A DNA stretch of 64,000 nucleotides from Bacillota bacterium. GTDB taxonomy: Bacteria; Bacillota_I; Bacilli_A; ML615J-28; CAG-698. Under the pieces are notes generated by a model. The model was not told the origin of the DNA. It saw only the letters and a list, made by a program, of their open reading frames with translations, and searched no databases. Below are positions 5,832 to 21,626 of this stretch, one piece after another (the stretch's first letter is position 1; each line of letters begins with the position of its first letter). The position numbers and the translations under genes are program-made. Location of the stretch: the NCBI GenBank assembly GCA_016280895.1, contig JAEEHM010000080.1, forward strand, positions 1,297 through 65,296. The letters are read 5' to 3'.

Positions 5832-5994
5832 AATATACCTCTTTTATATTATAACATATTTATGATGTAATTGTATATTTATATTAAAAAAATATAATAA
5901 TTCCAAAAAATATAAAAGAATTTGAGAAAATATCTCAAATTCCTTTACTTTTTTATTAAGATGTGATAAAATTATGGCATAAAAGGTGGATATT

Positions 5995-7203: not shown

Positions 7204-7211
7204 GGTGAATA

Positions 7212-7847
7212 ATGTCAAGAAGAGATGAGGGAAGAAAAGAAAGAATATCAAAAAATATCAGTCCAAAAGGCGAAGAGTGGTATTTCTATTCTGAAGGAAA
7301 AGAAACAGAACCTAATTATTTAAAATCTTTATTTGAAAATGTTGATAAAGATAAAGAATCAATTAATCCAATTATTGAAGGATTAGGTATGGTTAGCTTA
7401 TCTTTAGTAAATGATGTAATAGAGAAAGACAATAAAATAGTAAAAGAGCATAAAACATTTGTGTTATTTGATAAGGATGATAATCCTAATGTGAATTTTA
7501 ATTTTGCTATTGATAAAGCTAAACAGAATAATATTATTCCCCTTTGGTCAAATGAATGTTTTGAATTATGGCTATTACTTCATTTTAATTATATAGATTC
7601 TAATATTTCTAGAAATGATTATTATGATAAACTAAAAACTTTGACTAAAAGTAAGACATATAAAAAGAATTTGGAAACTATCTTTGACGAAGTTAATGGA
7701 ATAGACGGTCTTTTAATAGCTTATAAGAATGCGAAAAGGTTATTTAACAATTATAAAGGCAATAGTTATAAGGACATGGCACCATGTACAACTGTATTTG
7801 AATTGATAGATGAGATTAATAAGGTCATTAATGTTTTAAAGAAGTAG
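7212..7847 (+). CDS. RloB-like protein (AbiLii-like partner)
   Basis: Starts 9 nt after the ATPase stop. RloB signatures: YSEGKETEPNYL, LFDKDD, WSNECFELWLLLHF. Confidence 0.8.
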   Translation: MSRRDEGRKERISKNISPKGEEWYFYSEGKETEPNYLKSLFENVDKDKESINPIIEGLGMVSLSLVNDVIEKDNKIVKEHKTFVLFDKDDNPNVNFNFAIDKAKQNNIIPLWSNECFELWLLLHFNYIDSNISRNDYYDKLKTLTKSKTYKKNLETIFDEVNGIDGLLIAYKNAKRLFNNYKGNSYKDMAPCTTVFELIDEINKVINVLKK

Positions 7848-7866
7848 TCTTTAAAAACTTAAATAT

Positions 7867-7887
7867 CGAAACAAAATGTTTCGAAAT
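7867..7887. repeat. 21-bp palindrome-containing repeat cgaaacaaaatgtttcgaaat (copy 1)
   Basis: Identical to 10115-10135. Arms cgaaaca/tgtttcg are inverted repeats, and flanking bases are also partly similar. Confidence 0.9.
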
Positions 7888-7939
7888 TCGAGTTTTTAAG
7901 ACAGCGTCGAAATGTAAATTTTATTATAGAATAAAATAT

Positions 7940-7979
7940 TTGACATTTACGCTAAAATATATTATAATATTTAGCGTAA
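7940..7979 (+). promoter_or_regulatory. abiE promoter with embracing 10-bp inverted-repeat operator
   Basis: ttgaca (7940-7945), 17 nt, tataat (7963-7968). Perfect IR ttacgctaaa (7947-7956) / tttagcgtaa (7970-7979) brackets the -10. Confidence 0.7.
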
Positions 7980-7991
7980 GAGGAAAACGTT

Positions 7992-8579
7992 ATGAAGGAC
8001 AAATTAAATGATTTTGTGAACAAAAACAATGGTTATCTTATTTCTGCTTATGCGAGAGAAGAAGGTTTTTCAAGACAATATATTTCTTATTATGCTAGAA
8101 AAAACAACTTAGAAAGAGTTGCAGAAGGTATTTATATTACAGAAGATACATGGCCAGATTATTTATATATTTCACAATTACGAAATGAAGAAGTTGTGTT
8201 TTCATTTGAAACGGCATTATATCTTCATGGTTTAATGGACAGAGAACCTACTTTTACTAGTGTGTCTGTTAATTATGGTTATAACGCAATGCATTTAAAG
8301 AATAAGGGATTCAAAGTTCATACTTCTATTACAGATATTTATAATATTGGGATTGAGACTGTTGAAACACAATTTGGAAATGTTGTTAAAACATATGACA
8401 TGGAAAGAACAATTTGCGATATTATTAAATATAAAAAATATATGGATATTCAAGTGTTCACTACAGCATTGAAAGAATATGTAAAAAGTGATAATAAACG
8501 TATTCCTGTCTTAATGGATTATGCAAAAAAATTGAAGGTTGAAGATAAAGTTAAAGATTATTTTGAGGTGTTATTGTGA
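7992..8579 (+). CDS. abiEi: Type IV toxin-antitoxin AbiEi-family antitoxin / transcriptional repressor
   Basis: N-terminal wHTH pattern (NNGYLISAYAREEGFSRQYISYYARKNNLERVAEGIY). 4-nt overlap (GTGA) with the downstream AbiEii reading frame. Confidence 0.75.
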   Translation: MKDKLNDFVNKNNGYLISAYAREEGFSRQYISYYARKNNLERVAEGIYITEDTWPDYLYISQLRNEEVVFSFETALYLHGLMDREPTFTSVSVNYGYNAMHLKNKGFKVHTSITDIYNIGIETVETQFGNVVKTYDMERTICDIIKYKKYMDIQVFTTALKEYVKSDNKRIPVLMDYAKKLKVEDKVKDYFEVLL

Positions 8580-9415
8580 TTGTTAGCACTCCACAATTAA
8601 AAGCAAAAATAAGAAAACTATCAGATGGTAATAGTGACAAGTCACAAGCTTTGCTTAGAACATTTTTTATGGAAAGATTTTTGGAAAGGCTATGCAACTC
8701 TGATTATAAAAATAACTTCTATTTAAAAGGAGGCATACTTGTCTCATCATTATTGGGACTTGATGTACGTTCAACAATGGATATTGATACAACAATTTCC
8801 GAATTTAATCTAGATCATGAAACTACTAAACGCGTTATCGAAGAAATAATAAATATTGATATTAATGATGGGGTTACATTTGAAATAATTAAAGAAGCAA
8901 AAATAATGGATGAAGCTGACTATCCTGGCATTCGCTTCACGTTACAAGCAAATTTTGAAAAGATTAAACAAAAAATAAAAATCGATATTTCAACAAGTGA
9001 TATTATTACACCATCAGCAATTGAATATAATTATAAATTAATGTTGTAAGATAAGACTATTCAATTGAGATCTTATAATATTGAAACTTTATTAGCAGAA
9101 AAAATAGAAACAATAATGGCTAGAGGAACAACAAACACAAGAATGCGAGATTTCTATGATATATACCAAATATATATGCAAAGAGAAGATTCTATTTCTT
9201 TTAACTTATTGAAGAAAGCTTTTGAAAATACTAGTAAAAGAAGAAAATCATATAATTTATTTTCAAATATTGAAAATATATTATATGATATTCAACAAAA
9301 CGAAGAGATGATGTTAAATTGGGAAAATTATAAAAATGATTCTTATTATGTTGGTGAATTAAGTTGGAAAGAAGTGAACGAAACAATTCAAATTGTAATT
9401 AAAAAAATGAAATAA
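8576..9415 (+). pseudogene. abiEii: AbiEii/AbiGii-family nucleotidyltransferase toxin interrupted by one in-frame TAA (9047-9049)
   Basis: ORFs 8576-9049 and 9065-9415 are in the same frame (...KLML*DKTIQLRSYNIE...). N-terminal part has FMERFLERL...FYLKGG...STMDIDT. C-terminal part has LLAEKIETIMARGTTNTRMRDFYDIY. Confidence 0.75.
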
Positions 9416-9435
9416 TAATTGAGAAGGAGAAGAAA

Positions 9436-9969
9436 GTGAAGACAATATGTGGATCAAGCTGTTCAATTATTGATATGGCAGGTGATTTTTATGAAGCTTA
9501 TAATAGATGTGTCGAAAATAAAAATGTAAGAAATAATGGATTCGGAACAACAATTGCTGATGTAGTTAATGTTCCTGCAATAGTTAATGGAGCTTTTGCA
9601 ATTGAATTATACTTAAAAAGTATGATAGATCCAAAGAAAATTGAGAACAAGAGAATTCACAATTTAAAAAGGCTTTATTCTTTTTTGAAAAAGGAAGAAA
9701 AGAATGAACTAGAGAAAAGAATATGTGAAGAACTTTTAAAAATGAATTGGCAAATAAATAATGACACATTACAAGCAAATAGAAAATCTAGTACCGAAAA
9801 AGATATATTTGAAATATGCTTGAAAGGTATTAGCGAAGCTTTTGCTTATTGGAGATATATTTTTGAAAAGAAAAACACAGGGTTTGGTTTTCTTAATACA
9901 TTAAATGTGCTCCCAGTATTTTTAAAAAATATAAAAGTTTTTGCAGAAGAAAAAAATGGTAGATTGTAA
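9436..9969 (+). CDS. Hypothetical protein, possibly HEPN-like
   Basis: GTG start with RBS gaaggag. Helical pattern AFAIELYLKS...RIHNLKRLY...AYWRYIFE resembles HEPN-type helices by eye only. Confidence 0.4.
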   Translation: MKTICGSSCSIIDMAGDFYEAYNRCVENKNVRNNGFGTTIADVVNVPAIVNGAFAIELYLKSMIDPKKIENKRIHNLKRLYSFLKKEEKNELEKRICEELLKMNWQINNDTLQANRKSSTEKDIFEICLKGISEAFAYWRYIFEKKNTGFGFLNTLNVLPVFLKNIKVFAEEKNGRL

Positions 9970-10042
9970 ATAAAAATTGATAATAATTGAATAAATGATT
10001 GATTAAAACGAAGAGATATGATAAAATAATATTGATCAATGA

Positions 10043-10099
10043 GTTGGTGTACTGCTGGGTGGTGGCCTTTGGGTTGCAGCAGAGCCAACTTTTCTTTTT
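10043..10099 (+). terminator. GC-rich hairpin plus T-run terminator
   Basis: gttggtgtactgctg ... cagcagagccaac followed by ttttcttttt. Confidence 0.7.
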
Positions 10100-10114
10100 G
10101 TATAAACTCTAAAA

Positions 10115-10135
10115 CGAAACAAAATGTTTCGAAAT
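10115..10135. repeat. 21-bp palindrome-containing repeat cgaaacaaaatgtttcgaaat (copy 2)
   Basis: Identical to 7867-7887. Confidence 0.9.
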
Positions 10136-10223
10136 ATGCGTTTTTTGATATAGTATCTTTTTAAAAATGGTCTGTCAAAAACTATGGTGAAAACTATTTA
10201 ACATTACTTTTAAAAAAATTCGA

Positions 10224-10252
10224 TTGATAAATTGAGTGCTATATGATATAAT
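10224..10252 (+). promoter_or_regulatory. Sigma-A-type promoter of the HTH gene
   Basis: ttgata, 17 nt, tataat. Confidence 0.6.
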
Positions 10253-10292
10253 GATATTGCCCTATAATGTAGGGCGTTCAAGGAGAATACAT

Positions 10293-10595
10293 ATGAGCGA
10301 ATTCATCAACAATTTAAAAAAGCATGCTGTTAGAATAGAAGTACAACTTCCTGAAATCGATAAAGATTTTGTGAAAAGATTGAGAATCAGTTTAAATATG
10401 AGTCAATCATTATTTGCAAGTTATTTAGGAGTTACTAAAAAAGCTATTGAGAAATGGGAACAAGGTGTTAATAAAATAAAGGGAACAGCTAAGGTTTTAT
10501 TGTATCTGATAAATGATGATCCTAATATTCTTTCAAAAATAGCAAAAGTAGAATATAATGGCGAAAAACATGAATATAAGAAGGAGGCTATATAA
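10293..10595 (+). CDS. XRE/YiaG-type HTH protein (antitoxin-like, no toxin partner seen)
   Basis: RBS aaggag plus ATG at 10293; the upstream extension from 10236 covers the promoter. LRISLNMSQSLFASYLGVTKKAIEKWEQGVNKIKGTAKVLL is the YiaG/HigA-like HTH pattern. Confidence 0.7.
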   Translation: MSEFINNLKKHAVRIEVQLPEIDKDFVKRLRISLNMSQSLFASYLGVTKKAIEKWEQGVNKIKGTAKVLLYLINDDPNILSKIAKVEYNGEKHEYKKEAI

Positions 10596-10686
10596 ATATG
10601 AAATATGTAAAAGCAAATCAAAAGAGAGTAACAGATGTTAAATGTCAATATTATTTTAACCAAAAAAGAGAATATTAATTAAACCA

Positions 10687-10879: not shown

Positions 10880-10909
10880 TTGACAACAATTACATTTATT
10901 TGATATAAT
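10880..10909 (+). promoter_or_regulatory. Promoter P1 (extended -10) for riboswitch 1
   Basis: ttgaca, 18 nt, tgatataat. Confidence 0.65.
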
Positions 10910-10928
10910 ACTAATGTAAATATAAGTT

Positions 10929-11017
10929 AATAGCAAAACACGGGAAACTGTGTGACGCAAAACTATAGGGTCTGAAATGATAGCCAGTTGCCAAATATAT
11001 TGGAAACTGGTTTTTTT
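10929..11017 (+). promoter_or_regulatory. c-di-GMP-I (GEMM-I) riboswitch 1 with intrinsic terminator
   Basis: agcaaaa, then cacgg-GAAA-ctgtg hairpin, then GACGCAAAACTATAGGG, TCTGAAA, TAGCCAGTTGCC. Terminator stem ccagttgcca / tggaaactgg (1 mismatch) plus T7. A second hairpin, ttttttgtaaca/tgttacaaaaaa, lies at 11012-11036. Confidence 0.8.
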
Positions 11018-11080
11018 GTAACATTTGTTACAAAAAAGAAAGATCGTGTTAAAAAATATTAAAAAAATTAAAAATATTTA

Positions 11081-11109
11081 TTGACAATATTTATAAAATA
11101 TGGTAAAAT
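11081..11109 (+). promoter_or_regulatory. Promoter P2 (extended -10) for riboswitches 2 and 3 and the operon
   Basis: ttgaca, 17 nt, tggtaaaat. Confidence 0.65.
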
Positions 11110-11142
11110 ATTGTTGTAAATTAAAAATAGTACTACAAGTGC

Positions 11143-11235
11143 TAAAGGCAAAGCAAGAGAAATCTTGTGACGCAAAGCTATAGGGCCTGAAATGGTAGCC
11201 AGTTGTCATTTGATGTTGACAGTTGGCTTTTTTTG
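11143..11235 (+). promoter_or_regulatory. c-di-GMP-I (GEMM-I) riboswitch 2 with intrinsic terminator
   Basis: AAAGGCAAAG, then caaga-GAAA-tcttg, then GACGCAAAGCTATAGGGCCTGAAATGGTAGCCAGTTGTC. Terminator gccagttgtca / tgacagttggc (2 G-U pairs) plus T8. Confidence 0.85.
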
Positions 11236-11277
11236 TTCCTTATAGAATTTAAAAAGCTAGCCAAAGGTTTTTAATGT

Positions 11278-11367
11278 TAAAGGCAAAGCAAGAGAAATCT
11301 TGTGACGCAAAGCTATAGGGCCTGAAAATGGTAGCCAGTTGTCATTGATAGACAACTGGCGTTTTTT
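11278..11367 (+). promoter_or_regulatory. c-di-GMP-I (GEMM-I) riboswitch 3 with intrinsic terminator
   Basis: Near-identical to riboswitch 2 over about 68 nt, with one extra A. Perfect terminator stem gccagttgtc / gacaactggc plus gTTTTTT. Lies 45 nt upstream of the 11413 start. Confidence 0.85.
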
Positions 11368-11412
11368 ATACCCCTGCAATATTTGAGAAGAGAGAAAGGA
11401 AGGTAATTAGTT

Positions 11413-12132
11413 ATGAAATTACTGACAACGAAGTATCTGATTACCAAGAACTTCTTACTTCTTGGAATATTGGTTACAGGTTTGTTATCAGCGATCATCG
11501 GTGTGTTAGCGTTCTTTGGTCAAAACATGGGAACATTCGTTATATCACTTGGTGATGATGCCTTTAGGACAGGTATTATCTTATCAGATAATAAAGAATT
11601 CACAACTTCAAGTCCACGTTTGTTGGTTAACCCAGTTAACAACTCAATGCCTGTATCGTTTGATGATATAGCAATTCAAGAGTGTATGTCAACAGATGGT
11701 GACTTTGAAGATCCAAAAAATCTTACTTATATCGGTTATACCTTCTATCTTATGAATGAAGGAAACACAATTGTAGATGTAGAATTCAATATTGATATTG
11801 TAACTGTTACAAAAAATATTGATGCAGCTGCAAGAGTAATGCTGATACAAGATGATGATGTAGAACATTTATCAATTTATAGAAAAGCGGATTCTAATCC
11901 AATAAATTACTACGATCACACTCCATACGAGTTATCAAAAGACTTTGAATCAAGTAGTAGAGTGTGCACAAACACCTTTGAGTCTTTTAGACCAGGTGAT
12001 GTTAAAAAGTACACTTTATTTATTTGGTTAGAAGGTTGGGATGAAGATTGCAACGACTCAGTAATGGGTGGACAATTAAGAATGAACATGACATTTAACA
12101 TTGTTAAGAGTCTTGTTGAAGATGATGATTAA
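11413..12132 (+). CDS. TasA/camelysin-like secreted or anchored protein with SipW-type signal-peptide-like N-terminus (accessory fibre component?)
   Basis: RBS aaaggaagg. N-terminal TM ending GVLAFFGQNMGTF, compared with the TasA signal ...GGGTWAAFND. C-terminal pattern MGGQLRMNMTFNI resembles the TasA-family terminal strand. Confidence 0.5.
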   Translation: MKLLTTKYLITKNFLLLGILVTGLLSAIIGVLAFFGQNMGTFVISLGDDAFRTGIILSDNKEFTTSSPRLLVNPVNNSMPVSFDDIAIQECMSTDGDFEDPKNLTYIGYTFYLMNEGNTIVDVEFNIDIVTVTKNIDAAARVMLIQDDDVEHLSIYRKADSNPINYYDHTPYELSKDFESSSRVCTNTFESFRPGDVKKYTLFIWLEGWDEDCNDSVMGGQLRMNMTFNIVKSLVEDDD

Positions 12133-12259
12133 AAGTAATTTATTAAATGTGATGAAAAATTAGTTTTTCTGATTCTTATTATGGTAATAACAAAAAGAAC
12201 AAAATAAAAAAAGAAAAGAACAAACAAAAGAAAAGGATTTTAAAAAAAGGAGAAAAATT

Positions 12260-13054
12260 ATGAAAAAATTTACTACAAAATTATTAATGTCTATTATTGC
12301 TGTTGCTTTTGCTTTCGTAGCATTAGGAACTTCTACTTATGCATGGTTCTCAATGAACACTGAAGTTACAGTTACTGGTATGCAAGTTGTTGCAAAATCA
12401 GATAACACTTATTTATTAATTGGTGATGGTGAAAATAACACTGCTGCTAAAATTCAAGGATTAGAAACTGCTGTTACAGTTGATCTTGCAATTTCTGATG
12501 ATGATTCTAAAGTATATCCAAGTGCACCAAAAACTGCTGACGACATTGGAGAAGGCAAAAAATTTGCTGATGGCACAGCTGTAACTGATGCTACATCTGC
12601 TGCTGCTTTTGCTAACTGGTATACTGCAAATGCTGAAAAATCAAGTGAAGCTACAATGAAAGCTGGAACTGCTAAATCATTAACAAAATTTGATGGTTAT
12701 GTATTAGTAAAGACTGTATATTTAACTGTAGCTAAAGGTGCTAACCCTGCTAAAGCTTTAACTGCAACTGCTACTTTTGCTCAAAAAGGTGAAGGAAATG
12801 ATTTATCTGCTGCAAGAGTTCTTGTTACAACTGATTTAGGCGCTGGAGGAATGGCAGTTTTATCATCAACAAATGCTTCAAATGTTGCAATCGCACCTGC
12901 TGATGCTGAAATCACTGAAAATACACTTGTAACTGTAAATCTTTACATTTACGTTGACGGAAATGACAGCAAAATTTTCACTAACAATACAGCTAATTTA
13001 AAAGGTGCTACTATTTCATTAGCATTTAATGTTAGTTCAGTACCTGCTGCTTAA
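12260..13054 (+). CDS. TasA/camelysin-family protein with SipW-cognate signal peptide (putative major fibre subunit)
   Basis: RBS aaaggag. MKKFTTKLLMSIIAVAFAFVALGTSTYAWFSMN matches the SipW-dependent signal class (G-T-x-A-x-F-[NST]). Ala/Thr-rich and Cys-free. C-terminal LKGATISLAFNV. Followed by a hairpin. Confidence 0.65.
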   Translation: MKKFTTKLLMSIIAVAFAFVALGTSTYAWFSMNTEVTVTGMQVVAKSDNTYLLIGDGENNTAAKIQGLETAVTVDLAISDDDSKVYPSAPKTADDIGEGKKFADGTAVTDATSAAAFANWYTANAEKSSEATMKAGTAKSLTKFDGYVLVKTVYLTVAKGANPAKALTATATFAQKGEGNDLSAARVLVTTDLGAGGMAVLSSTNASNVAIAPADAEITENTLVTVNLYIYVDGNDSKIFTNNTANLKGATISLAFNVSSVPAA

Positions 13055-13087
13055 TAAAGCAACAAATATTTAACGATATTTAATTTT

Positions 13088-13120
13088 ACGCCTAGGCGAA
13101 AACCTAGGCGTATATTTATA
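13088..13120 (+). terminator. Hairpin (attenuator or terminator) after the putative major subunit gene
   Basis: acgcctagg-cgaaaa-cctaggcgt followed by a weak T-tract. An extended -10 (tggtaatat, 13187-13195) follows. Confidence 0.55.
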
Positions 13121-13236
13121 TAAAACATTAATATGTGAAAATATAACAATTATTTTTCATAAAATATAGATTTTTTGTTAAAAATGTGGTAATATATGTT
13201 ATATAACTATGCTTATAAGATATATGAGGTGAATAT

Positions 13237-14127
13237 ATGGAAAATACTAAACAAATGAACCCAAAAGTAAAGAAAATATTAAGTATTGTATTTAATGTTT
13301 TATTTTATGCTTTCTTAGTATTGTTATTTGCATTTTCAATCAGTAATATTAGAAGTAGAAAAAATAATATTCCAAACATCTTTGGTGTTGGATATTTGCA
13401 AGTCCAATCAGGATCAATGACCGGCACTTTCGAAAAAGGAGATTTTATTTGGGTTAAAATTGCAAACGATAAAAAAATAGATAAACTTGAGATTGGAGAT
13501 ATAATTACTTTCTATGATCCTGCGATTTCTGAATCTATCGTGAATGCTGGTGGTGAAGATGATGGAACATCATTGAATACCCATAGAATCGTTGATATTA
13601 AAGAGATGGATGATGGATCATTACGATATATTTGCCAAGGTGATTATGTAAAAATTTCATTTCCAGCCAATGTTTATGATTCATCAAAATCAAGTAATAC
13701 TATGATTCAAATAGTTACAAAGGATAATATTCGTGCTATCTACACAAGCAATATGGGTAAAGGCATGACTGGCATCTTAAAGTTTGCTAAGTCAAGTTTA
13801 GGATTTGGATTATGTATTGTACTTCCAACTGCATTATTATTAGTTTATGAAGTTGTAATGTTAATTAGAAACATTATGAAGTTAAATAAAGAGAAGTTAG
13901 AAGCTCAAATGGCTGAAACACAAGCTGCTCAACAAGAAGATTTAGAAGCTCAAAAACAAAGAATGAGAGAAGAATTACTTGCTGAATTAAGAGCAGAACA
14001 AGCTAAATCAAATGAAGCTCAAGAAGCACAAGTAGAAAATGTTCAAGAAGAAAAAACATCTGAAGATGTTCCTGAAGAACAACCTGTTGAAGAAGAAAAA
14101 GTAGAAGAAAATAAAGAAGAAAATTAA
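13237..14127 (+). CDS. sipW: SipW-type (S26B, archaeal/ER-type) signal peptidase I with C-terminal TM and charged coiled-coil/acidic tail
   Basis: N-terminal TM. Catalytic Ser box QSGSMTGTF, His box NTHRIVDI, CQGDY. Second TM LGFGLCIVLPTALLLVYEVVMLI, then about 85 aa of E/Q/K-rich tail ending ...KTSEDVPEEQPVEEEKVEENKEEN. Confidence 0.75.
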   Translation: MENTKQMNPKVKKILSIVFNVLFYAFLVLLFAFSISNIRSRKNNIPNIFGVGYLQVQSGSMTGTFEKGDFIWVKIANDKKIDKLEIGDIITFYDPAISESIVNAGGEDDGTSLNTHRIVDIKEMDDGSLRYICQGDYVKISFPANVYDSSKSSNTMIQIVTKDNIRAIYTSNMGKGMTGILKFAKSSLGFGLCIVLPTALLLVYEVVMLIRNIMKLNKEKLEAQMAETQAAQQEDLEAQKQRMREELLAELRAEQAKSNEAQEAQVENVQEEKTSEDVPEEQPVEEEKVEENKEEN

Positions 14128-14147
14128 TTTAGTAACGAGGTGAAAGG

Positions 14148-15713
14148 ATGACAGAGTTCGCAAGATATTACGTAACTTTCTTAAGGGAATTATTCTCTAA
14201 TATATGGGATTTCATTAAGACATTATTTGGTGCCTTTGCGAATCTTCTATATTATGACATTAAAGACTATTTTAATATATTAGTTAATGCAAGTAATGGA
14301 TTTAACATCCTTGACTGGATTGTATTTGTATTTGTATTAATTATTAATGTTTCATTTATTGCTTTAATTGTAATAAGAATTGCTCAAGCAATAAGACGTC
14401 ATCATAAAAATAGAAAGAAAGATGCTGAAAAAGCAGAATTGTTAGAAGAAATAGCTGGACTAAATTATAAAGTTGAAGAATTAATTAATGAAAAAAATCA
14501 ATTGTTTGCTATGAAAGTTTCATCATTAGGTTTGCGTGCTAATGGTACTGTACCAGTTGAAGGTGGAGGATCATCAACTGAAAGAGGTGGTAAACCTGGT
14601 GAAGATAAGAAACTAAAAGCTGGTGAATCAAGATTCGTTAAATTAATCAATGTAGATAAAGACTACAATAAAGTTGCTATCATCACAAACATGGGTGAAG
14701 CTGATATGGTTAACTTGCCAGAATTAGTAGATAGATTTGTAAACTTCAGTGCTAGCCAATTGAAATTATTCTATGAAAAGAAATTAATTGCTATTTGGTT
14801 TGCTGGACTTGCAACATCTAAGATTTTAATTCTTGAAGGTATATCTGGTACTGGTAAAACATCACTACCATATGCTATGGGTAAGTTCTTCCAAAACGAT
14901 GCTGCTATCGTTTCAGTACAACCATCTTGGAGAGATAGAGCTGAAATCATTGGTTATTTAAATGAATTCACTAAGAGATTTAATGAAACAGATTTCTTAA
15001 AAGCATTATATGCTACTACATATCGTGATGATATTAATATCATCATCCTCGATGAAATGAACTTAGCACGTATTGAGTATTATTTTGCTGAATTCTTATC
15101 AATCATGGAAATGCCAGATGTCAATGAATGGAAGATTGATATCGTTCCTGATTCATTAAGTACAGACCCAGTTAATATTGTAAATGGTAAATTATTAGTA
15201 CCACAAAATGTTTGGTTCATTGGTACAGCCAATAAGGATGATTCAACATTCACAATTACTGATAAGGTATATGACCGTGCTACTGTTTTAGAGATGAACT
15301 CAAAAGCTAAATATATTGATGCAGCATTTACACCAGCTATCAATATGACTTATGAATACTTAGATAATCTATTCAAGAAAGCTTTGGAAGAACATCCATT
15401 ATCTTCTAAATCACTTGATAACTTAGCTAAGGTTGATAAGTTCATTGCTGCTAATTTCAAGATTACATTTGGTAACCGTATTCTTAAACAAATCAAGATA
15501 TTCGTACCTGTATTTGTAGCTTGTGGATTTAGTGAAACAGAAGCTATTGATTATTTCTTAGCTTATAAGATTATTAGAAAATTTGAAAGTTTAAATCTAT
15601 CATTCTTACATAATGAATTAAACGAATTGATATCTGTATTAGATAAGATATACGGCAAGGGTGCATGTGAAGAATGTATTTCTTGTATTAAAGACTTTAT
15701 TAAGAATTCATAG
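14148..15713 (+). CDS. Membrane-anchored McrB-family (AAA+ GTPase) protein
   Basis: TM ILDWIVFVFVLIINVSFIALIVI, a short coiled coil and a Gly-rich linker. Walker A EGISGTGKTS, Walker B IIILDEMNLARIEYYFAEFLS. FIGTANKDDS aligns with McrB IGLMNTADRS, giving the NxxD motif NKDD. Confidence 0.7.
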   Translation: MTEFARYYVTFLRELFSNIWDFIKTLFGAFANLLYYDIKDYFNILVNASNGFNILDWIVFVFVLIINVSFIALIVIRIAQAIRRHHKNRKKDAEKAELLEEIAGLNYKVEELINEKNQLFAMKVSSLGLRANGTVPVEGGGSSTERGGKPGEDKKLKAGESRFVKLINVDKDYNKVAIITNMGEADMVNLPELVDRFVNFSASQLKLFYEKKLIAIWFAGLATSKILILEGISGTGKTSLPYAMGKFFQNDAAIVSVQPSWRDRAEIIGYLNEFTKRFNETDFLKALYATTYRDDINIIILDEMNLARIEYYFAEFLSIMEMPDVNEWKIDIVPDSLSTDPVNIVNGKLLVPQNVWFIGTANKDDSTFTITDKVYDRATVLEMNSKAKYIDAAFTPAINMTYEYLDNLFKKALEEHPLSSKSLDNLAKVDKFIAANFKITFGNRILKQIKIFVPVFVACGFSETEAIDYFLAYKIIRKFESLNLSFLHNELNELISVLDKIYGKGACEECISCIKDFIKNS

Positions 15714-15738
15714 ATTTCTATGAATTCTTTTATTTTTT
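15702..15738 (+). terminator. Perfect 11-bp hairpin plus T-run overlapping the stop of the McrB-like gene (intra-operon attenuator?)
   Basis: aagaattcata-gatttc-tatgaattctt followed by ttattttttgg. Only 27 nt remain before the next start, so there is no room for a promoter. Confidence 0.6.
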
Positions 15739-15764
15739 GGTAAAGTAAAGAAAGGAGAAAAGGC

Positions 15765-18587
15765 ATGAAAAAGGATCAATTAGCAAACAAACAAAAGATC
15801 AATGATGATGTAACGAAATATTCTCAAAAATTAGATTATGCTTTATTTAATCTAAATAATGAAGACTTCTATAAATATTTTGAAAATGCCTTTTTGAATG
15901 GTGATAGAACACTTTATCAAAAAAACATTTCCGAAGCAAAAACATTTGATGATACATGGATTAAAACAGTTGAATCTTATTTTCCTAGTATAGATAAAAT
16001 CACTAGAGAACCTAAATCAATTTTAAGATATGATGAAGATATTGTTGCAGTAGAAAGAGCTAAAAAGACAAGTGCTAAATCAGTTAGACATTTAGCTAGT
16101 CATACTGAGAATATCAGAGATATTGATGAGAATAATTATGTTACTCCAAAGAAGGTTTTAATTGAAATACCTGAACAAGAATATGCTATTTATGAAAATA
16201 GATTTATTAAAACATTAATTAATCGTTTATATTTGTTTGTGAAGAATAGATATGAAATCATTAAGAATAATGTTGAATCTTTCCAAAAAGATCGATTATC
16301 AGGTACTGCTAATTTTGATTTTAATGATACTAAGGTTGAATTAAGTGTTGATTTAACTATCACTAAGGACTTAGATGATAAGAAGATCAATGAACATAAT
16401 TATGATTTGTTGGCTAGAACTGAGAAATTAAATTATTTGATTACTGGTTTAAAGAATTCACAATTCATGAAGATGTTGAAGAATGCACCTGCTGTGCATC
16501 CTCCTATCATGAAAACAAATATCATCATGAAGAATCCAGAATTTAGAAATGCGTATAACTTATGGATCTTCTTAGATAAATATTCTATTTTAGGTTATGA
16601 TGTAACTATTAGAGAAAAAGATCTTGAATTTGATGATGGATTCATTGATGATATCAATCATATGTTTGCAACTAACTATGCAATTATATTAGGTAATCAA
16701 TTAAATAGATTAGAAAAATATAATGTTCCTGATGGATATCAAGAATTAATAAAGAAGAAAACTAAGATCGTTAGTCAAAATCCTAAAGATTTTGTACCTA
16801 ATCCAGATTTAATTGAAATGGAAGAAAGTCATTTAAATGAATTCTTCTTACAAAAATATAAAGAATTATTGGATTCTGGTATTAATAAGGAAACTAAGAA
16901 TGAATTCTTAGATGAACCTAATGATGCGATTATTAAACGTAATGTTCGTCAAACTACTGATATTGTGAATGCATTGTATGATGCTAAATTTGAAATATCA
17001 GAAGAGGCTGATATCTTACATAGACTAGAAGATACTGACTTAGAAAAAGAATATCAAAGATCTCTTGAACAATTACGTTATGCTAAAATTATTAGAGAGG
17101 TTAAAGAAGTCGATTACAACAATTTCTTTAGAACTGAAAGAAGATTACTTCGTGCTCTTTCTAAAACTAATACTGAGATGATTAAGAAATTAATCGAAGA
17201 AAGAAAGTATGAAGAAAAAGAAAGAAAGATTAAAGAAATTGAAGCAAAGATAGATGCATTAAAGAAAGAGAATGAAGAAAGAAGCAAACAAATAGATGCT
17301 TTAAACGATCATCAAACTTTAATGAAAGAAGAGAAACAAAGACTTATTGATGAGAGAAATAAGACTATCAATAAGGTTGATGAAGAGATGAAGAAGTACG
17401 ATCAAATGATGGAAGCTAAGTACGAAGAAGAAAGACAAAAAGTACTTGCTCAATTACAAGCTGAAAAAGAACGTGCTAAAGAACTTAAGGCTTTAGAAGA
17501 TGAGGCTAAGAAATATCGTAAGCAAGCTCTAAACGATATGATTGCGGAAGAACGTGCTAAAGCTCAAGAAGAAATGGAAGCTAAGTTCAAACTTCATCGT
17601 GAAGAAATGGAAGCTGCACTTAATGATATTAGAGATATCGCTATTAGATATCAAGAAAAGATTCAAAGTGAAGTTGAAAGAAGAGAATTAGAGAACAGTC
17701 AAAAAGAAAAAGAAGCTATTGCAATCTTTAAAGTTAGCAAATATGAAGAAGCTTTGGAACAAAAGAACAAAATTGAACTTGAAAGTGCTGAGGCTGCTTA
17801 TAATAAGGCTCTTGCTGAAAAGCAAGCTAAGATTGATGCTAAGACTGAACTTGATAATAAATTGAAGGAATTAGATGATGAATATCAAAACAGATTATCA
17901 TCTAAATTACAAGATTTAGAAGCTGAATATAATGAAGCTATGGCTCAAGTAATTGAGAAACCAGAAATCTTAGAAGAACAAGAAGTTGAAGATCAAACAT
18001 CTGACGATGTTCTAGATGATGCTGAAATTCAAGAAAAGGTAGCTTCTGATTTAGCAAGACTTCAAAGTATTGAAGAAGAAGAGAGAAAGCAAGAAGAAGA
18101 AAGATTAAAAGCTGAAGCAATAGAGGTTGAAAAACTAGAAGCATTAAAAGAAGCTGAAGCTGCTAGACTTCAAGAAGAAGCATTTGAAGCAAAGAGACAA
18201 GAAATTGAAGCTGAATTAAATAATTCTTATGATAATTCATTAGAAGAAGAAAAGCAAAAACAAATCAATTTAAATGCTATCCAAAGAGAAAAAGAAGCAA
18301 AAGCTATTTCTTTAGTTCAATCTTATGAAAAAGGTAAGAAGGATGAAGAAGCTTTAGCTTTAAAAGAAGAGGAAGAAAAAGCTCTTGCTGAACAAAAGCG
18401 TTTAGATGCTTTAAAATTTGAAGAAGATCAAAAGCGAATTGAAGCACAAATTGAAGAGCAAGCAAGACTTGAAGAAAAGAAGCAACAAATCAAATTAAAT
18501 GCAATTCAAAGAGAAAAAGAAAATAAAGCAATCTCTCTAGTTCAAGAATATGAGAATAAAAGAGATGCAAAATCTATTGAAAGATAA
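15765..18587 (+). CDS. McrC N-terminal-domain-like (DUF2357-like) protein fused to a ~600-aa E/K/A-rich coiled coil; no nuclease motif recognised
   Basis: RBS aaaggag. YAIYENRFIKTLINRLYLFV resembles the McrC/DUF2357 ..ENR.iK..L.. segment. Residues from about 340 to 940 are heptad-like E/K/A/L. Contains the internal repeat Q(I)xLNAIQREKExKAISLVQxYE. Confidence 0.45.
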   Translation: MKKDQLANKQKINDDVTKYSQKLDYALFNLNNEDFYKYFENAFLNGDRTLYQKNISEAKTFDDTWIKTVESYFPSIDKITREPKSILRYDEDIVAVERAKKTSAKSVRHLASHTENIRDIDENNYVTPKKVLIEIPEQEYAIYENRFIKTLINRLYLFVKNRYEIIKNNVESFQKDRLSGTANFDFNDTKVELSVDLTITKDLDDKKINEHNYDLLARTEKLNYLITGLKNSQFMKMLKNAPAVHPPIMKTNIIMKNPEFRNAYNLWIFLDKYSILGYDVTIREKDLEFDDGFIDDINHMFATNYAIILGNQLNRLEKYNVPDGYQELIKKKTKIVSQNPKDFVPNPDLIEMEESHLNEFFLQKYKELLDSGINKETKNEFLDEPNDAIIKRNVRQTTDIVNALYDAKFEISEEADILHRLEDTDLEKEYQRSLEQLRYAKIIREVKEVDYNNFFRTERRLLRALSKTNTEMIKKLIEERKYEEKERKIKEIEAKIDALKKENEERSKQIDALNDHQTLMKEEKQRLIDERNKTINKVDEEMKKYDQMMEAKYEEERQKVLAQLQAEKERAKELKALEDEAKKYRKQALNDMIAEERAKAQEEMEAKFKLHREEMEAALNDIRDIAIRYQEKIQSEVERRELENSQKEKEAIAIFKVSKYEEALEQKNKIELESAEAAYNKALAEKQAKIDAKTELDNKLKELDDEYQNRLSSKLQDLEAEYNEAMAQVIEKPEILEEQEVEDQTSDDVLDDAEIQEKVASDLARLQSIEEEERKQEEERLKAEAIEVEKLEALKEAEAARLQEEAFEAKRQEIEAELNNSYDNSLEEEKQKQINLNAIQREKEAKAISLVQSYEKGKKDEEALALKEEEEKALAEQKRLDALKFEEDQKRIEAQIEEQARLEEKKQQIKLNAIQREKENKAISLVQEYENKRDAKSIER

Positions 18588-18605
18588 TGCATAATTTGTA
18601 TGAAT

Positions 18606-18640
18606 AAGCAACTTGTGTATTTATCAAGTTGCTTATTTTA
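18606..18640 (+). terminator. Hairpin plus short T-tract between the coiled-coil gene and sipW2
   Basis: aagcaacttg-tgtatttat-caagttgctt then atttta. Confidence 0.55.
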
Positions 18641-18659
18641 ATTAAAAAAGGAGGTAATT

Positions 18660-19340
18660 ATGGAAAATGTCAAAAAAGATAATTCGAAAATATCAAAAAG
18701 AATTATAACTATTTTTGCATGGGTAATTACTGCCTTACTTAGTTTAATGGTTATATTGCTGTTGGTATTTGGTCTTAGTTCAATCAAACAAGGAAAGATG
18801 GTAAAAATATTTGGTTATTCATATTCTGTTATTGTATCAGAATCTATGGTACCAACAATCAATGTCAGTGATATTATTATCATCAACACTAAATATGAAT
18901 TTGAAGATGTTAAAAAAGATGATATTATCGTATTTTATAATCCAAATGAACAAAAGAATATTGCTCATAGAGTTGTAGATATTTTAGAAGATGGTAGCCT
19001 ACAAACATGTGGTGATAACAATAATGGTCTTGTTGATGGATTCCATGTTACTGAAGAATATTATATTGGTAAAGTAACAAAATACGGACATTTCTTAGGT
19101 CTTGGTTCATTAATGATGAACGGACGTGTTGTTTTCTTTATTGCACTTGCTGCGATATTCATGTATATTATTGTTACAGAAGCAATCAATATTTATAAGA
19201 TGAGCATGAAGAAGAAACACGAAGATAAGATGAAAGAAATTGAAGATAATAAGAAAAAACAAGAAGATGAATTACGTGCTCAATTAAAAGCAGAATTATT
19301 GAAAGAACTTGAAAATGAGAAAAACAAACTTTCCAATTAG
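18660..19340 (+). CDS. sipW: Second SipW-type signal peptidase I with C-terminal TM and K/E-rich tail
   Basis: RBS aaaggagg. VSESMVPTI (Ser box), IAHRVVDI (His box), TCGDNNNG. TM VVFFIALAAIFMYIIVTEAI, then a charged tail. Confidence 0.8.
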   Translation: MENVKKDNSKISKRIITIFAWVITALLSLMVILLLVFGLSSIKQGKMVKIFGYSYSVIVSESMVPTINVSDIIIINTKYEFEDVKKDDIIVFYNPNEQKNIAHRVVDILEDGSLQTCGDNNNGLVDGFHVTEEYYIGKVTKYGHFLGLGSLMMNGRVVFFIALAAIFMYIIVTEAINIYKMSMKKKHEDKMKEIEDNKKKQEDELRAQLKAELLKELENEKNKLSN

Positions 19341-19373
19341 TAAAATTTAATAAAAGATTTTTATAATCGAAAA

Positions 19374-19418
19374 AACCCTCATCCATGAGCTACTCAAGGA
19401 TGAGGGCTATTTATTTTT
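19374..19418 (+). terminator. Rho-independent terminator closing the locus
   Basis: ccctcatcc ... ggatgaggg stem followed by ctatttattttt. Confidence 0.8.
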
Positions 19419-19950: not shown

Positions 19951-20026
19951 AGTGTATAAAATATACACTTTTTGTTGACATATTACGTCAGAAAGGAGTA
20001 TAATAAAAGTGTATAAAATATACAGT
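19951..20026 (+). promoter_or_regulatory. Promoter sandwiched by two copies of a 19-bp palindromic operator
   Basis: agtgtataaaatatacact (19951-19969, perfect palindrome); ttgaca (19975-19980), 18 nt, tataat (19999-20004); agtgtataaaatatacagt (20008-20026). Confidence 0.65.
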
Positions 20027-20038
20027 AAGGAGACGTTT

Positions 20039-21190
20039 ATGTTAGAGAAAATTATTATCAATAATATCAATTCTATTAAAAATGCCGAAATAGACTTTAA
20101 AAAAGGAAGTTACAAATTTGGCGAAGACAATATTGTTGAAAACATTGTAAATCCTATGGCCTTATATGGTCATAATGGTAGTGGTAAAACTTCTGTATTT
20201 CTTGCATTGGATAGTTTAATAAAGATTATGAATCAAGCAAGTGTAGAATTGCGCCCTTTTGTTGTTAATTATTTTCTTTATAATAAATATCAACAGGCGA
20301 AAGAGAATGAAAGAAACGAAGACGATATCAGTGGTTCTATTACTTTAAGCTTTTCTTTAAATAATGATAATTATGAATATTTTATTTCTACATCAATGTT
20401 AGCTTATATTAGAAAGGAATATTTAAAATTTAATTCTAAGATTATTTTTGAAAGAAATAAGGAAGGAAGCACTTATAATGGTAAATATGTGTCATTTGAT
20501 GGTAATTATAATCTTGTGCCTATGCTTAGAAGTTTGGCATCGTCAGAGATCAACAATCAAATAATACAGGATGCATATTCATACATTAGCTCTTTTACTT
20601 TCTTGAGCCTTCCACAAATTAATAAGGGATACTTTGTTACTTCAAAGGTGTTCAATAATATCGGTTATGCTGATTTGTTAGTAAAAAAAGCAGAGGAAAT
20701 TGAAAACATTTTAAAGACATATAAGGAATTCCCTGTCTTTAAAGTAAAGAAGAAAAGTGAATTAGTTGGTATCAATGCGCCTATATCTCAATTTGTGTTT
20801 GAAATACAGGATGGTTCCTTCAAAGGAGAATTACCATTTTCTTTATTATCTGCTGGTATGAGAAATCAAGCAATTCTATTATCAATTCTTGTATCCATCC
20901 CTGAAAATAGTGTGGTATTTGTAGACGAATTAGAACAAGCATTGCATCCAAGTGCAATAAAATCTTTTTTAGAAGTTGTAAAAAAGAAAAAAATTCAATT
21001 AGTTTTCTCTTCACATAATACATATATCCTACAAATGTTAAGACCTGACCAAGTATATTTTACTCATTGGCATGAAGGTTTTTCAAAGTGTTCACGCTTA
21101 TCTAAGATATATCCTAATATTCGTGAAATCAATAACATAGAAAAAATGTACTTGTCATCAGTATTTGATGAGGCCATAAAGAATGGATAA
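20039..21190 (+). CDS. Stand-alone AAA15/AAA21-type ATPase (defence-associated family; partner gene absent)
   Basis: RBS aaggag plus ATG at 20039; the listed GTG at 20009 lies inside the operator. Walker A GHNGSGKTS, VFVDELEQALHP, FSSHNTYIL. Confidence 0.7.
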   Translation: MLEKIIINNINSIKNAEIDFKKGSYKFGEDNIVENIVNPMALYGHNGSGKTSVFLALDSLIKIMNQASVELRPFVVNYFLYNKYQQAKENERNEDDISGSITLSFSLNNDNYEYFISTSMLAYIRKEYLKFNSKIIFERNKEGSTYNGKYVSFDGNYNLVPMLRSLASSEINNQIIQDAYSYISSFTFLSLPQINKGYFVTSKVFNNIGYADLLVKKAEEIENILKTYKEFPVFKVKKKSELVGINAPISQFVFEIQDGSFKGELPFSLLSAGMRNQAILLSILVSIPENSVVFVDELEQALHPSAIKSFLEVVKKKKIQLVFSSHNTYILQMLRPDQVYFTHWHEGFSKCSRLSKIYPNIREINNIEKMYLSSVFDEAIKNG

Positions 21191-21356
21191 TTTTTTATTA
21201 TAATTAGTAAAAATAAAAGCCATTTTAATAAATATAATAATAGGCCCTTAATATTGGATATTTTCTCTATATAATTACTACAATAAATGTATTAATAATG
21301 TGTTGACAACATTAACACAATAATATATAATATATTTATAGAGGAGATAAAGAAAA

Positions 21357-21626
21357 ATGGCAAATGTAAATGTTAGAATTAATAATGATATTAAAGCTAA
21401 TGCTGAAAATGTATTTAAGAGATTAGGTATTACTCCTACAACTGCTATTACCTTGTTTTATAATCAAGTGATTAGAACTAATAGCATTCCATTCGAATTA
21501 AAAGCAGATGTACCTAATGATACTACAAAGAAAGCTATTAGCGAATTGGATGATATGAAAAAGAATCCAGATAAATATAAATCATATAAAAATGTTGATG
21601 AATTAATGGAGGCCTTAAACAATTGA
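21357..21626 (+). CDS. RelB/DinJ-family type II antitoxin (orphan)
   Basis: MANVNVRINNDIKANAENVFKRLGITPTTAITLFYNQVIRTNSIPFEL is the DinJ/RelB RHH pattern. Downstream, only a 13-codon TTG ORF overlaps the stop (TTGA). Confidence 0.75.
   Translation: MANVNVRINNDIKANAENVFKRLGITPTTAITLFYNQVIRTNSIPFELKADVPNDTTKKAISELDDMKKNPDKYKSYKNVDELMEALNN

Follow-up and report, generated by a model that had tools for sequence, protein, structure and literature searches.

A CoCoPALM locus behind three c-di-GMP-I aptamers: a predicted surface-fibre operon with a membrane-anchored McrB-type GTPase

Genes and control elements of the locus

The window analysed here is a stretch of 64,000 nucleotides (nt) of contig JAEEHM010000080.1 (assembly GCA_016280895.1, Bacillota bacterium), and the system in question is a string of six plus-strand open reading frames (ORFs) lying behind three riboswitches for cyclic di-GMP (c-di-GMP). 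ORF1 (11413-12132, 239 amino acids (aa), protein cluster c5) is a candidate membrane-anchored base subunit, and ORF2 (12260-13054, 264 aa) a secreted, Ala/Thr-rich beta-sandwich protein and candidate major fibre subunit. They are followed by ORF3 (13237-14127, 296 aa), a signal peptidase I of the SipW/archaeal type, ORF4 (14148-15713, 521 aa), a membrane-anchored McrB-type GTPase with an NxD motif, ORF5 (15765-18587, 940 aa), a McrC-like protein made of a DUF2357 domain and a coiled coil, and ORF6 (18660-19340, 226 aa), a second signal peptidase I of the SipW/archaeal type. An earlier note on this DNA had listed six co-directional genes with gaps of 127, 182, 20, 51 and 72 nt, and both the coordinates and the gaps were reproduced. 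On its gene content the locus is a CoCoPALM, a class that has been named and is so far uncharacterised.

The Rfam search of the window gave exactly three matches above threshold, all of them c-di-GMP-I aptamers (RF01051) on the plus strand, at 10922-10995 (63.4 bits), 11137-11210 (61.4 bits) and 11272-11346 (63.8 bits), the gathering score being 35. All three match the full model with E values of about 1e-10 for the whole window, which is far beyond chance. Each aptamer overlaps, by at least 6 nt, its own hairpin and U-run on the same strand. The terminator of riboswitch 1 is found at 10983-11017 (hairpin 10983-11010 followed by seven T, -12.4 kcal/mol when folded alone), that of riboswitch 2 at 11197-11238 (hairpin 11197-11228 with a 12-bp stem, U-run, -14.9 kcal/mol) and that of riboswitch 3 at 11334-11370 (hairpin 11334-11360 with a 10-bp stem including 6 GC pairs, U-run, -17.9 kcal/mol). 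The 5' arm of the last one, GCCAGTTGTC, includes CCAGTT, the 3' strand of the aptamer helix P2, and in the minimum-free-energy folds of all three units the terminator (-12 to -18 kcal/mol) displaces the outer P2 pairs. Since the 3' strand of P2 forms part of the terminator, ligand binding should block termination, and the three leaders are predicted to be ON switches for c-di-GMP. Leakage through three such switches in series should be low, and the response to high c-di-GMP tight and steep. The earlier note had placed three c-di-GMP-I aptamers ahead of the operon and had proposed riboswitch gating; the first point is confirmed by scores of 61-64 bits against 35, and the second is supported by the aptamer-terminator overlap in all three units.

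Two promoter-like sites were found on the same strand. Site 1 (10880-10909; TTGACA, 18 nt, TG, TATAAT) agrees with the sigma-70 consensus at 12/12 positions, has an extended -10 element and is the sole perfect consensus; it lies 13 nt 5' of aptamer 1. Site 2 (11081-11109; TTGACA, 17 nt, TG, TAAAAT; 11/12) lies between riboswitches 1 and 2. Since it is located past riboswitch 1, some transcripts may meet only two of the three switches. Promoter-like matches overall are not commoner than in shuffled sequences (50 vs 54.8), and both sites are to be taken as consensus matches only.

The AlphaFold2 (AF2) model of ORF1 (predicted local distance difference test score, pLDDT, 87.1) consists of a helix of 37 residues (2-38) followed by a beta-sandwich. 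Throughout the family, conservation of the residues in the N-terminal transmembrane segment is 90% or higher. Since such conservation is unusual for a cleaved signal, it suggests that ORF1 is a permanent membrane anchor with specific contacts. The structural matches of the ORF1 model are generic sandwiches, with PDB entry 7ueg in the fourth place (E 3.9e-3). At the level of profiles, hhalign relates the ORF1 family to c1, the family of the major subunits in related loci (97% probability, E 8.5e-11, approx. 190 columns), and in 50 loci the module begins with a gene of the ORF1 family. ORF2 has only its N-terminal part, approx. 59 columns, in common with c1 in the same kind of comparison. A relationship between ORF1 and ORF2 themselves was also considered and none was found (hhalign probability 2.9%).

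The AF2 model of ORF2 (pLDDT 84.9) is a beta-sandwich in which residues 22-45, where a donor strand would sit, are unstructured. The top three PDB matches obtained with this model in Foldseek were 8aur, the TasA fibre (E 2.7e-4, TM-scores 0.27/0.29), 7pnb, the Sulfolobus thread, and 7ueg, the Pyrobaculum bundling pilus, all of which are donor-strand-exchange filaments. The model thus points weakly to a TasA-like protein, and at the fold level only. A profile of 41 c1 relatives, searched against the PDB, gave no TasA chain and no meaningful match.

The signal peptide of ORF2 ends in ...GTSTYA, followed by WFSMN. This type of hydrophobic N-terminus is shared by ten families of small proteins located in the same loci. 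Around residue 28 they have the pattern ...[ST]x[YF]A with W/F/Y-[FLIVM]-[ST] behind it, most often as AWF. The SipW-dependent TasA signal ends in ...T-W-A followed by A-F-N, and by eye the ...T-Y-A followed by W-F-S seen here is similar. Profile-profile comparison related the small subunit families to each other through their N-termini, with links between c6 and c13, c8 and c9, and c9 and c11. Subunits of the ORF2 type were also noticed outside CoCoPALM loci. In locus L085 (10001-20840) one of them comes first in a run of proteins that have this type of signal, together with a protein of 3620 aa, and in locus L087 (9044-10780) a c5-like and an ORF2-like gene form a pair that ends at a MULE transposase; this orphan pair has its own c-di-GMP-I aptamer.

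The two peptidases were recognized by their profiles. ORF3 matches TIGR02228 with 48.3 bits (E 1e-12), just under the cut-off of 51.85, and the SipW profile NF046067 with E 2e-16. ORF6 matches TIGR02228 with 73.6 bits against the same cut-off of 51.85, Pfam Peptidase_S26 with 34.7 bits (cut-off 22.9) and NF046067 with E 3e-17. The Ser/His pair of catalytic motifs can be read directly in both proteins, as SGSM...THRI in ORF3 and SESM...AHRV in ORF6. ORF3 has transmembrane helices at 14-32 and 192-210 and a charged C-terminal tail of 80 aa, and ORF6 has N- and C-terminal transmembrane helices and a charged helical C-terminal tail of 50 aa; the tails of both peptidases carry a conserved charged motif of the type E-K-E-x-M-R-x-E-L-L. 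By profile both are ER (endoplasmic reticulum)/archaeal-type signal peptidases of the SipW kind, in agreement with the earlier assignment. Since both fall below the equivalog cut-off of 190 bits for the B. subtilis SipW, they are SipW-type enzymes and not SipW orthologues.

ORF4 has a single strong transmembrane helix (58-76), a juxtamembrane coiled coil (approx. 92-125) and an AAA+ domain (approx. 200-515). The transmembrane helix is followed by the basic cluster RRHHKNRKK, the heptad-like segment EKAELLEEIAGLNYKVEELINEKNQL and a low-complexity linker; by the positive-inside rule, the basic cluster would place the remainder of the protein in the cytoplasm. No DNA-binding family was matched in Pfam by residues 1-200, which hold the transmembrane helix, the coiled coil and the low-complexity linker instead. 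The similarity of the AAA+ domain to McrB is weak and specific (NF008457, E 5e-4; PDB 6ut6 and 6hz4, E 5e-3 to 7e-3). The motifs GISGTGKT, IIILDE and ANKDDS are present and are invariant in alignment A1; Walker A and B are intact in 82/82 relatives, and N[KR]DD is found in 80/82. The signature reads G-T-A-N362-K-D364-D365-S. A GTPase that adjoins a UPF1-like helicase and a DUF2357 gene, that is, one with a CoCoNuT-type context (P0353), is 44% identical to ORF4 over 326 aa (E 1e-85), and here ANKDDS aligns gap-free to ANRDES. HMMER also places NKDD gap-free on NTAD of the E. coli protein. Since the NxD motif alone is ambiguous, the branch call rests on the similarity to the CoCoNuT-context GTPase, by which ORF4 is an McrB GTPase of the NxD branch. 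ORF4 also matches the PADLOC candidate PDC-M26A with E 1.5e-37. Since PDC-M26A matches the CoCoNuT-context protein equally well, this reflects a shared GTPase branch, that is, ancestry and not function. A protein identical to ORF4 is encoded on a contig of the metagenome-assembled genome (MAG) GCA_016295295.1.

ORF5 has an N-terminal domain of approx. 350 aa followed by a coiled coil of approx. 580 aa, and it has no transmembrane helix. Residues 72-168 match Pfam PF09823, DUF2357, which is the N-terminal domain of McrC (E 5.6e-9, 36 bits vs a cut-off of 23.3), and the same domain was matched in 24/24 relatives tested. The whole protein gave no match in Pfam, NCBIfam or PADLOC; since the coiled coil masked the N-terminal domain, DUF2357 was recovered when residues 1-380 alone were used. 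The coiled coil was called from composition, 67% of residues 360-940 being E, K, Q, R, L or A. No nuclease family was matched by ORF5 or any of 24 relatives (Pfam, E up to 1); residues 170-350 may conceivably hold an inactivated fold. The family profile of the N-terminal domain gave no meaningful match in the PDB. With 940 aa, ORF5 is the longest member seen in a family that ranges from 313 to 940 aa and mostly measures about 620 aa, and the length of the coiled coil seems to evolve freely. The coiled coil contains a tandem duplication of 75 aa, seen in the ORF5 gene as an 86-nt repeat at 18246-18331 and 18471-18556 (81% identity, spacing 225 nt, or 75 aa), with a third, weaker copy at 17686-17746. 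The earlier note's membrane-anchored McrB-family nucleoside triphosphatase (NTPase) is thus upheld by the helix at 58-76 and the McrB and 6ut6 matches, and its coiled-coil partner like the McrC N-terminal region by the DUF2357 match; its claim that the DNA reader and the nuclease have been lost agrees with the searches, in which neither was detected.

The hairpins that had been reported near 13088, 15702 and 18606 and at the operon end were all found on the plus strand. The one after ORF2 (13087-13112) is a possible attenuating terminator with an imperfect T-tail. Two inverted repeats with perfect arms of 13 nt span the ORF4 stop codon (15702-15729) and lie in the gap between ORF5 and ORF6 (18603-18637), respectively. 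The operon ends at an intrinsic terminator (19370-19418) whose GC-rich stem (19370-19412) is flanked by an A-run on one side and a T-run on the other, so that it could act bidirectionally.

Conservation, hosts and chromosomal setting

A pattern scan of a genome collection in which each species is represented once confirmed relatives of ORF4 in 467 matched stretches. Host range and gene orders as given here rest on the best 80 titled loci among these 467, plus later additions; ORFs were called in all fetched loci and clustered by BLASTP. Relatives that are 57-60% identical over the full length occur in Acholeplasma laidlawii, A. hippikon, Paracholeplasma and many MAGs titled "Bacilli", "Tenericutes" or Acholeplasmataceae. 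The cultured organisms among the best 80 loci are all Acholeplasmatales, and all cultured hosts are mollicutes without a cell wall; A. laidlawii (L002, L035), A. hippikon, Paracholeplasma vituli and Peloplasma aerotolerans carry the locus. The setting like that of Bacillus or Clostridium, which the earlier note had assumed, does not hold, as the family is centred on the wall-less Acholeplasmatales. Several MAGs are titled Bacteroidales, Omnitrophota or Staphylococcaceae (L007, L012, L014, L016, L022, L065), and their loci are organised as in mollicutes; the proteins of L012 are the same as those of the Tenericutes locus L011. These titles are probably the result of mis-binning or mislabelling, and phyletic counts taken from titles are therefore unreliable.

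The recurrent gene order begins with two GGDEF-EAL proteins (approx. 860 and 475 aa) and continues with c5, c1, SipW, the GTPase, the DUF2357 protein with its coiled coil and the second SipW. At the 3' end there are variable small proteins (c6, c7, c8, c9, c11, c13, c16, c17) and often a protein of approx. 2000 aa or more. The c5 protein (approx. 240 aa) is transmembrane-anchored, and c1 is present in two to six copies of approx. 320 aa, each with a signal peptide. The window holds a minimal version of this locus, with one ORF2-type subunit instead of the c1 copies and without minor-subunit modules downstream.

Some of the larger loci show additional features. Two copies of the locus lie approx. 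15 kb apart on one contig in Peloplasma aerotolerans (L066/L039) and in HGW-Tenericutes-2 (L071/L040). The upstream copies, L066 and L071, have a GTPase (508 aa) but neither a DUF2357 gene nor a second SipW, and continue straight into c6-c7-c8 and a protein of approx. 2350 aa. Giant proteins (approx. 1950-2480 aa, no Pfam matches) are found beside many loci, either immediately 5' of the leader or at the 3' end (from 17394 onwards in L002, from 16980 onwards in L003, and the c10 family in 12 loci); there is no such giant in the window. These proteins could be adhesins that are carried by the fibre or associated with it.

The order of the central genes is fixed. SipW is immediately 5' of the GTPase in 68/68 loci with enough flank, the DUF2357 protein is immediately 3' of it in 71/74, and the second SipW occurs within three genes downstream in 56/62. 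The core of c5-like, c1-like, GTPase, DUF2357 and SipW genes is kept even in the divergent locus L089, the GTPase of which is only 36% identical. By these comparisons, nothing else in the locus is as well conserved as the McrB/McrC-like pair. The earlier note had left two explanations side by side: an integral machine, or a defence module inserted between matrix genes, and it had called for a survey of gene neighbourhoods. In the survey McrB-like and coiled-coil genes do recur between the SipW genes. Since the SipW-GTPase-DUF2357 order is fixed and the core persists in L089, a sporadic insertion of the pair as a defence module is ruled out by synteny across 80+ Acholeplasmatales loci, and the integral machine is the explanation that the fixed synteny favours.

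The control elements are conserved as well. Rfam detected c-di-GMP-I aptamers 5' of the first gene in 6/6 loci tested, including those of A. laidlawii and A. hippikon. A covariance model built from 15 aptamers and run on 83 sources gave 132 matches, and 132/132 were on the operon strand. Among the 42 loci in which a c5 gene is preceded by 500 nt or more of sequence, 38 have aptamers within 700 nt upstream: one in 20 loci, two in 11 and three in 7. Further aptamers precede the downstream minor-subunit modules (19 cases for c7, 16 for c6, 7 for c16 and 3 for c11), which would mean separate c-di-GMP gates for parts of one locus. Internal aptamers of the larger loci were located at 14972-15057 in L017, at 15113-15190 in L011 and at 14119-14192 in L007, and at approx. 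14-15 kb in many others. No aptamer was found by the covariance model in L089.

Two plus-strand genes of the window, both of cluster c4, encode GGDEF+EAL proteins, at 301-1863 (Pfam EAL E 3e-64, GGDEF E 2e-16) and at 1878-3737 (EAL E 1.5e-46, GGDEF E 1.5e-22). In most loci that reach far enough upstream, such a c4-c4 pair lies directly 5' of the riboswitch and the first gene. A. laidlawii encodes 14 GGDEF/EAL proteins (PMC2408644), and no paper assigning a target to them was found in the literature search.

In the window the GGDEF-EAL pair is approx. 7 kb from the leader, with defence and toxin-antitoxin genes between them, whereas in most of the other loci holding the pair it abuts the leader. 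The region 3783-10600 contains an M48-like peptidase (minus strand), AAA_21 with RloB, AbiEi with AbiEii, HEPN and an MqsA-like helix-turn-helix gene. In L092, where the GTPase is 97% identical, the content differs and there is no M48, HEPN or MqsA gene; the region looks like a small variable defence islet. The AbiEii nucleotidyltransferase toxin of the window is split into 8576-9049 (157 aa) and 9065-9415 (116 aa), which cover profile positions 1-120 and 134-229, while it is a single gene of 279 aa in L092, L093 and L094; the window copy is probably a pseudogene. After the operon terminator, 20009-21626 encodes an ATPase of the AbiLi/AAA_21 type (PADLOC AbiLi, E 5e-41) and a RelB antitoxin. 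The L092 operon is followed by an ORF of 112 aa, after which come HPF, SecA and RF2, with no AbiLi-like or RelB gene called. A plasmid or phage origin was considered for the operon and rejected, as the window and the near-identical strain alike encode HPF, SecA and RF2 close behind it. The operon is best read as chromosomal and vertically inherited, and as coming from an Acholeplasmatales-like bacterium.

These neighbours (AAA_21/RloB, AbiEi/AbiEii, HEPN and MqsA-like upstream, the AbiLi-like ATPase and RelB downstream) speak for a rival explanation, by which the GTPase pair serves in anti-phage defence or conflict, as do its closest relatives, the CoCoNuTs. The pair would then be a module inserted among matrix genes, or the locus in its entirety would be a surface-remodelling defence with the fibre and peptidase genes as accessories. 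The flanking defence genes vary between near-identical strains, while the operon is constant. The PDC-M26A match of ORF4 and its 44% identity to the GTPase of a CoCoNuT-type locus speak for the defence explanation as well, although the first of these reflects ancestry, the CoCoNuT-context protein being matched equally well. Against it, no other part of the locus is conserved as well as the pair, which keeps 57-60% identity over the full length across the order, has matches in 467 species genomes and occupies a fixed position between two SipW genes; its chromosomal neighbours are constant too, which would not be expected of a mobile defence gene. The profile scans detected neither a nuclease nor another effector domain, and adhesion and biofilm functions are the usual targets of control by c-di-GMP riboswitches and a GGDEF-EAL pair. 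A defence role is therefore considered improbable.

Proposed mechanism and the role of the GTPase pair

Taken as a whole, the locus is best read as a surface-fibre operon switched by c-di-GMP, in which the GTPase pair takes part; we give this reading a probability of about 0.6. High c-di-GMP would allow read-through of the leaders and turn the operon on. ORF2 would be exported by Sec and cleaved by a SipW-type peptidase after TYA, and the freed N-terminal strand would serve in donor-strand complementation, as in TasA, the archaeal bundling pili and the threads. ORF1 would remain membrane-bound, form the base from which the fibre grows and replace the wall anchoring of the walled Firmicutes. 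On the inner side, six ORF4 subunits may assemble into a ring that their transmembrane helices tether beneath the membrane, and the DUF2357 domain of ORF5 would plug the pore of this ring in the manner of McrC in McrBC. The coiled coils of ORF4 and ORF5 might be docking sites for the cytoplasmic coiled-coil tails of the two peptidases. In this way GTP hydrolysis inside the cell could be coupled to processing, hand-over, anchoring or gating of the subunits outside.

Of the steps of this mechanism, the weakest is what exactly the GTPase does mechanically. That the pair is a true assembly motor is a doubtful proposition at present, and the more specific picture of an McrB ring with a DUF2357 "shaft", a new kind of cytoplasmic NTP-driven motor that is tethered to a single membrane, is joined to both signal peptidases through coiled coils and serves the assembly, anchoring or retraction of a TasA-like pilus, is equally tentative. 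TasA, the archaeal bundling pili and the threads assemble by donor-strand exchange without a dedicated NTPase (PMC9674648, PMC9245690, PMC9715654). The fibre may, then, self-assemble outside the cell, with the GTPase-DUF2357 pair acting as a cytoplasmic regulator or scaffold, such as a checkpoint on SipW or a cytoskeleton-like tether by which a wall-less cell would place or hold the fibre base at its membrane. ORF5 without a transmembrane helix, in a family ranging from 313 to 940 aa, would resemble a spacer or scaffold rather than a catalytic protein; ORF2-type subunits occur in L085, where the 10 kb fetched to each side contain no GTPase, and the tandem copies L066 and L071 have no DUF2357 gene of their own. 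The strict conservation of the NTPase motifs in 82/82 relatives argues for real nucleotide turnover, and the tight linkage of the pair to two peptidases with conserved cytoplasmic tails indicates functional coupling. This explanation, which we hold to be rather unlikely, differs from the preferred one only in the role of the GTPase, and the present data fit both.

The ancestry of the ring leads to a further alternative. McrBC is a GTP-driven DNA translocase, and the McrB-like ring might still translocate nucleic acid, the fibre and the ring together being an apparatus for DNA uptake or transfer. Competence and conjugation systems do combine a pilus with a membrane NTPase. In ORF4, however, the DNA-binding N-domain of McrB is replaced by a transmembrane helix and a coiled coil, and the Pfam and NCBIfam scans of the six proteins revealed no domain for DNA binding and none of the nuclease, channel or relaxase kind. 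In McrBC itself the pore of the ring is filled by McrC, not by DNA (Niu et al. 2020, as summarised in PMC11090510). A DNA-transfer function is considered highly improbable.

Several points weigh against the reading as a fibre operon with an active GTPase pair. The fold matches of ORF2 have low TM-scores (0.27-0.43), and the ORF1 model had no match at E of 1e-3 or below in the PDB fold search. Neither ORF1 nor ORF2 matched Pfam (E up to 1), NCBIfam or PADLOC, and Peptidase_M73 and TIGR04088 were absent from the results; with TIGR04088, only 2/41 c1 relatives matched, at E 0.04. The earlier note had proposed a TasA/camelysin or TIGR04088 profile match as its own test of the two proteins, and this test failed. 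Of its TasA-like calls, what stands is the weak fold match of ORF2, while the profile evidence and the ORF1 call, the matches of which are generic, do not. Cleavage by SipW after TYA and the ON direction of the switches are both predictions, and the lack of a cell wall in the organism of the window, although most likely, is judged from its relatives. The nearest relatives of ORF4 belong to predicted defence systems (CoCoNuT and the PADLOC candidate PDC-M26), and the locus of the window is flanked by defence genes. FtsB/DivIC was not matched by residues 1-134 or 1-200 of ORF4 in the Pfam hmmscan. The ORF2-type subunit of L085, as mentioned, has no GTPase nearby, and the need for a motor is not obvious, since TasA-type fibres assemble outside the cell without an NTPase. 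Finally, CoCoPALM systems are so far known from their genes alone.

If the fibre-operon reading is true, the engine of a restriction enzyme, McrBC, would have been co-opted into a surface-fibre machine, and the TasA-type fibres, which are thought to be energy-free, would be viewed differently. If the motor proposal were also true, it would represent a fifth principle of pilus building, apart from the type IV, chaperone-usher, sortase and conjugative ones, that evolved from a restriction enzyme in wall-less bacteria, and c-di-GMP signalling in mollicutes would have its first identified output. The locus would give c-di-GMP signalling in Acholeplasma a concrete target, and it bears on how wall-less cells attach and anchor extracellular polymers. 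It is present in cultured hosts, its riboswitch leaders can be assayed in vitro, and the six-gene version suits reconstitution.

Relation to known systems

The earlier note had taken the system for an undescribed one. This did not hold, since its architecture had already been named CoCoPALM by Bell et al. (eLife 2024, PMC11090510, section 7), who gave it two sentences and deferred the analysis. They defined it as an NxD McrB GTPase fused to an FtsB-like transmembrane segment and a coiled coil, together with a coiled-coil McrC homologue, and read its signal peptidases as pilus assembly factors (PMC11090510). The locus of the window has the same NxD McrB GTPase with an N-terminal transmembrane helix and coiled coil, the adjoining coiled-coil DUF2357 homologue of McrC, the genes of the signal peptidase family alongside and no nuclease. 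The FtsB-like segment is present as an architecture of transmembrane helix and coiled coil, and otherwise no defining feature differs. No follow-up on CoCoPALM was found in the literature searched, the supplements of the CoCoNuT paper holding no CoCoPALM text, and no paper was found that ties Acholeplasma to TasA, SipW, pili or a c-di-GMP target. Likewise, we found no earlier report of c-di-GMP-I riboswitches and a GGDEF-EAL pair at CoCoPALM loci, of the subunit families, of the fold resembling TasA, threads and bundling pili in at least one subunit type, of the duplicated peptidases with conserved cytoplasmic tails, of the transmembrane-anchored paralogous subunit or of the concentration in wall-less Acholeplasmatales.

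Among the relatives of the GTPase pair, McrBC of E. coli (6ut6, 6hz4, 7vsr) shares the AAA+ GTPase with Walker A and B and Asn-x(-x)-Asp motifs and the DUF2357 partner. It differs in that the B protein of the window is membrane-anchored and lacks the DNA-reading N-domain, that no PD-(D/E)xK nuclease was detected in the C protein, that the similarity to E. coli McrB reaches only E ~5e-3 and that the context is one of a surface structure and not of restriction. CoCoNuT (CnuB/CnuC with or without CnuH), a predicted RNA-targeting defence system, is of the same GTPase branch, with an NxD followed by D/E, and has coiled coils on both partners. CoCoNuTs, in contrast, always have HEPN or other nucleases and often a UPF1-like helicase, and are cytoplasmic, whereas the locus of the window has none of these and is membrane-anchored.

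On the side of control, tandem GEMM-I (RF01051) riboswitches on adhesin, pilus and flagellar genes of Firmicutes have the same class I aptamer, the same terminator platform and likewise a surface structure as target. The window differs from them by three complete units, a mollicute-like host and fibre genes linked to an McrBC-type pair. Type IV pili and archaella follow the same logic, in that their subunits are processed at the N-terminus, a membrane peptidase is dedicated to them and a hexameric NTPase sits on the cytoplasmic side of the membrane, but no part is homologous: a Ser/His type I signal peptidase stands here in place of an aspartyl prepilin peptidase, an AAA+ McrB-type enzyme in place of the PilB/FlaI NTPase and beta-sandwich subunits in place of alpha-helical ones.

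The matrix-fibre operons, tapA-sipW-tasA of Bacillus subtilis and sipW-bsaA of Clostridium perfringens, share with the locus a SipW-type peptidase beside beta-sandwich subunits, a subunit signal of the form ...x-A followed by aromatic-F/L-S/T/N and a paralogous accessory or anchor subunit, TapA there and ORF1 here, and the TasA fibre is the top PDB match of the ORF2 model. The subunits of the window, in contrast, lie outside Peptidase_M73 and TIGR04088, and there are two peptidases with long charged tails. The matrix-fibre operons are without the GTPase-DUF2357 pair and are controlled by SinR or temperature, where a riboswitch is found here. Lastly, the TapA/TasA fibres attach to a cell wall, which the hosts of the present locus lack.

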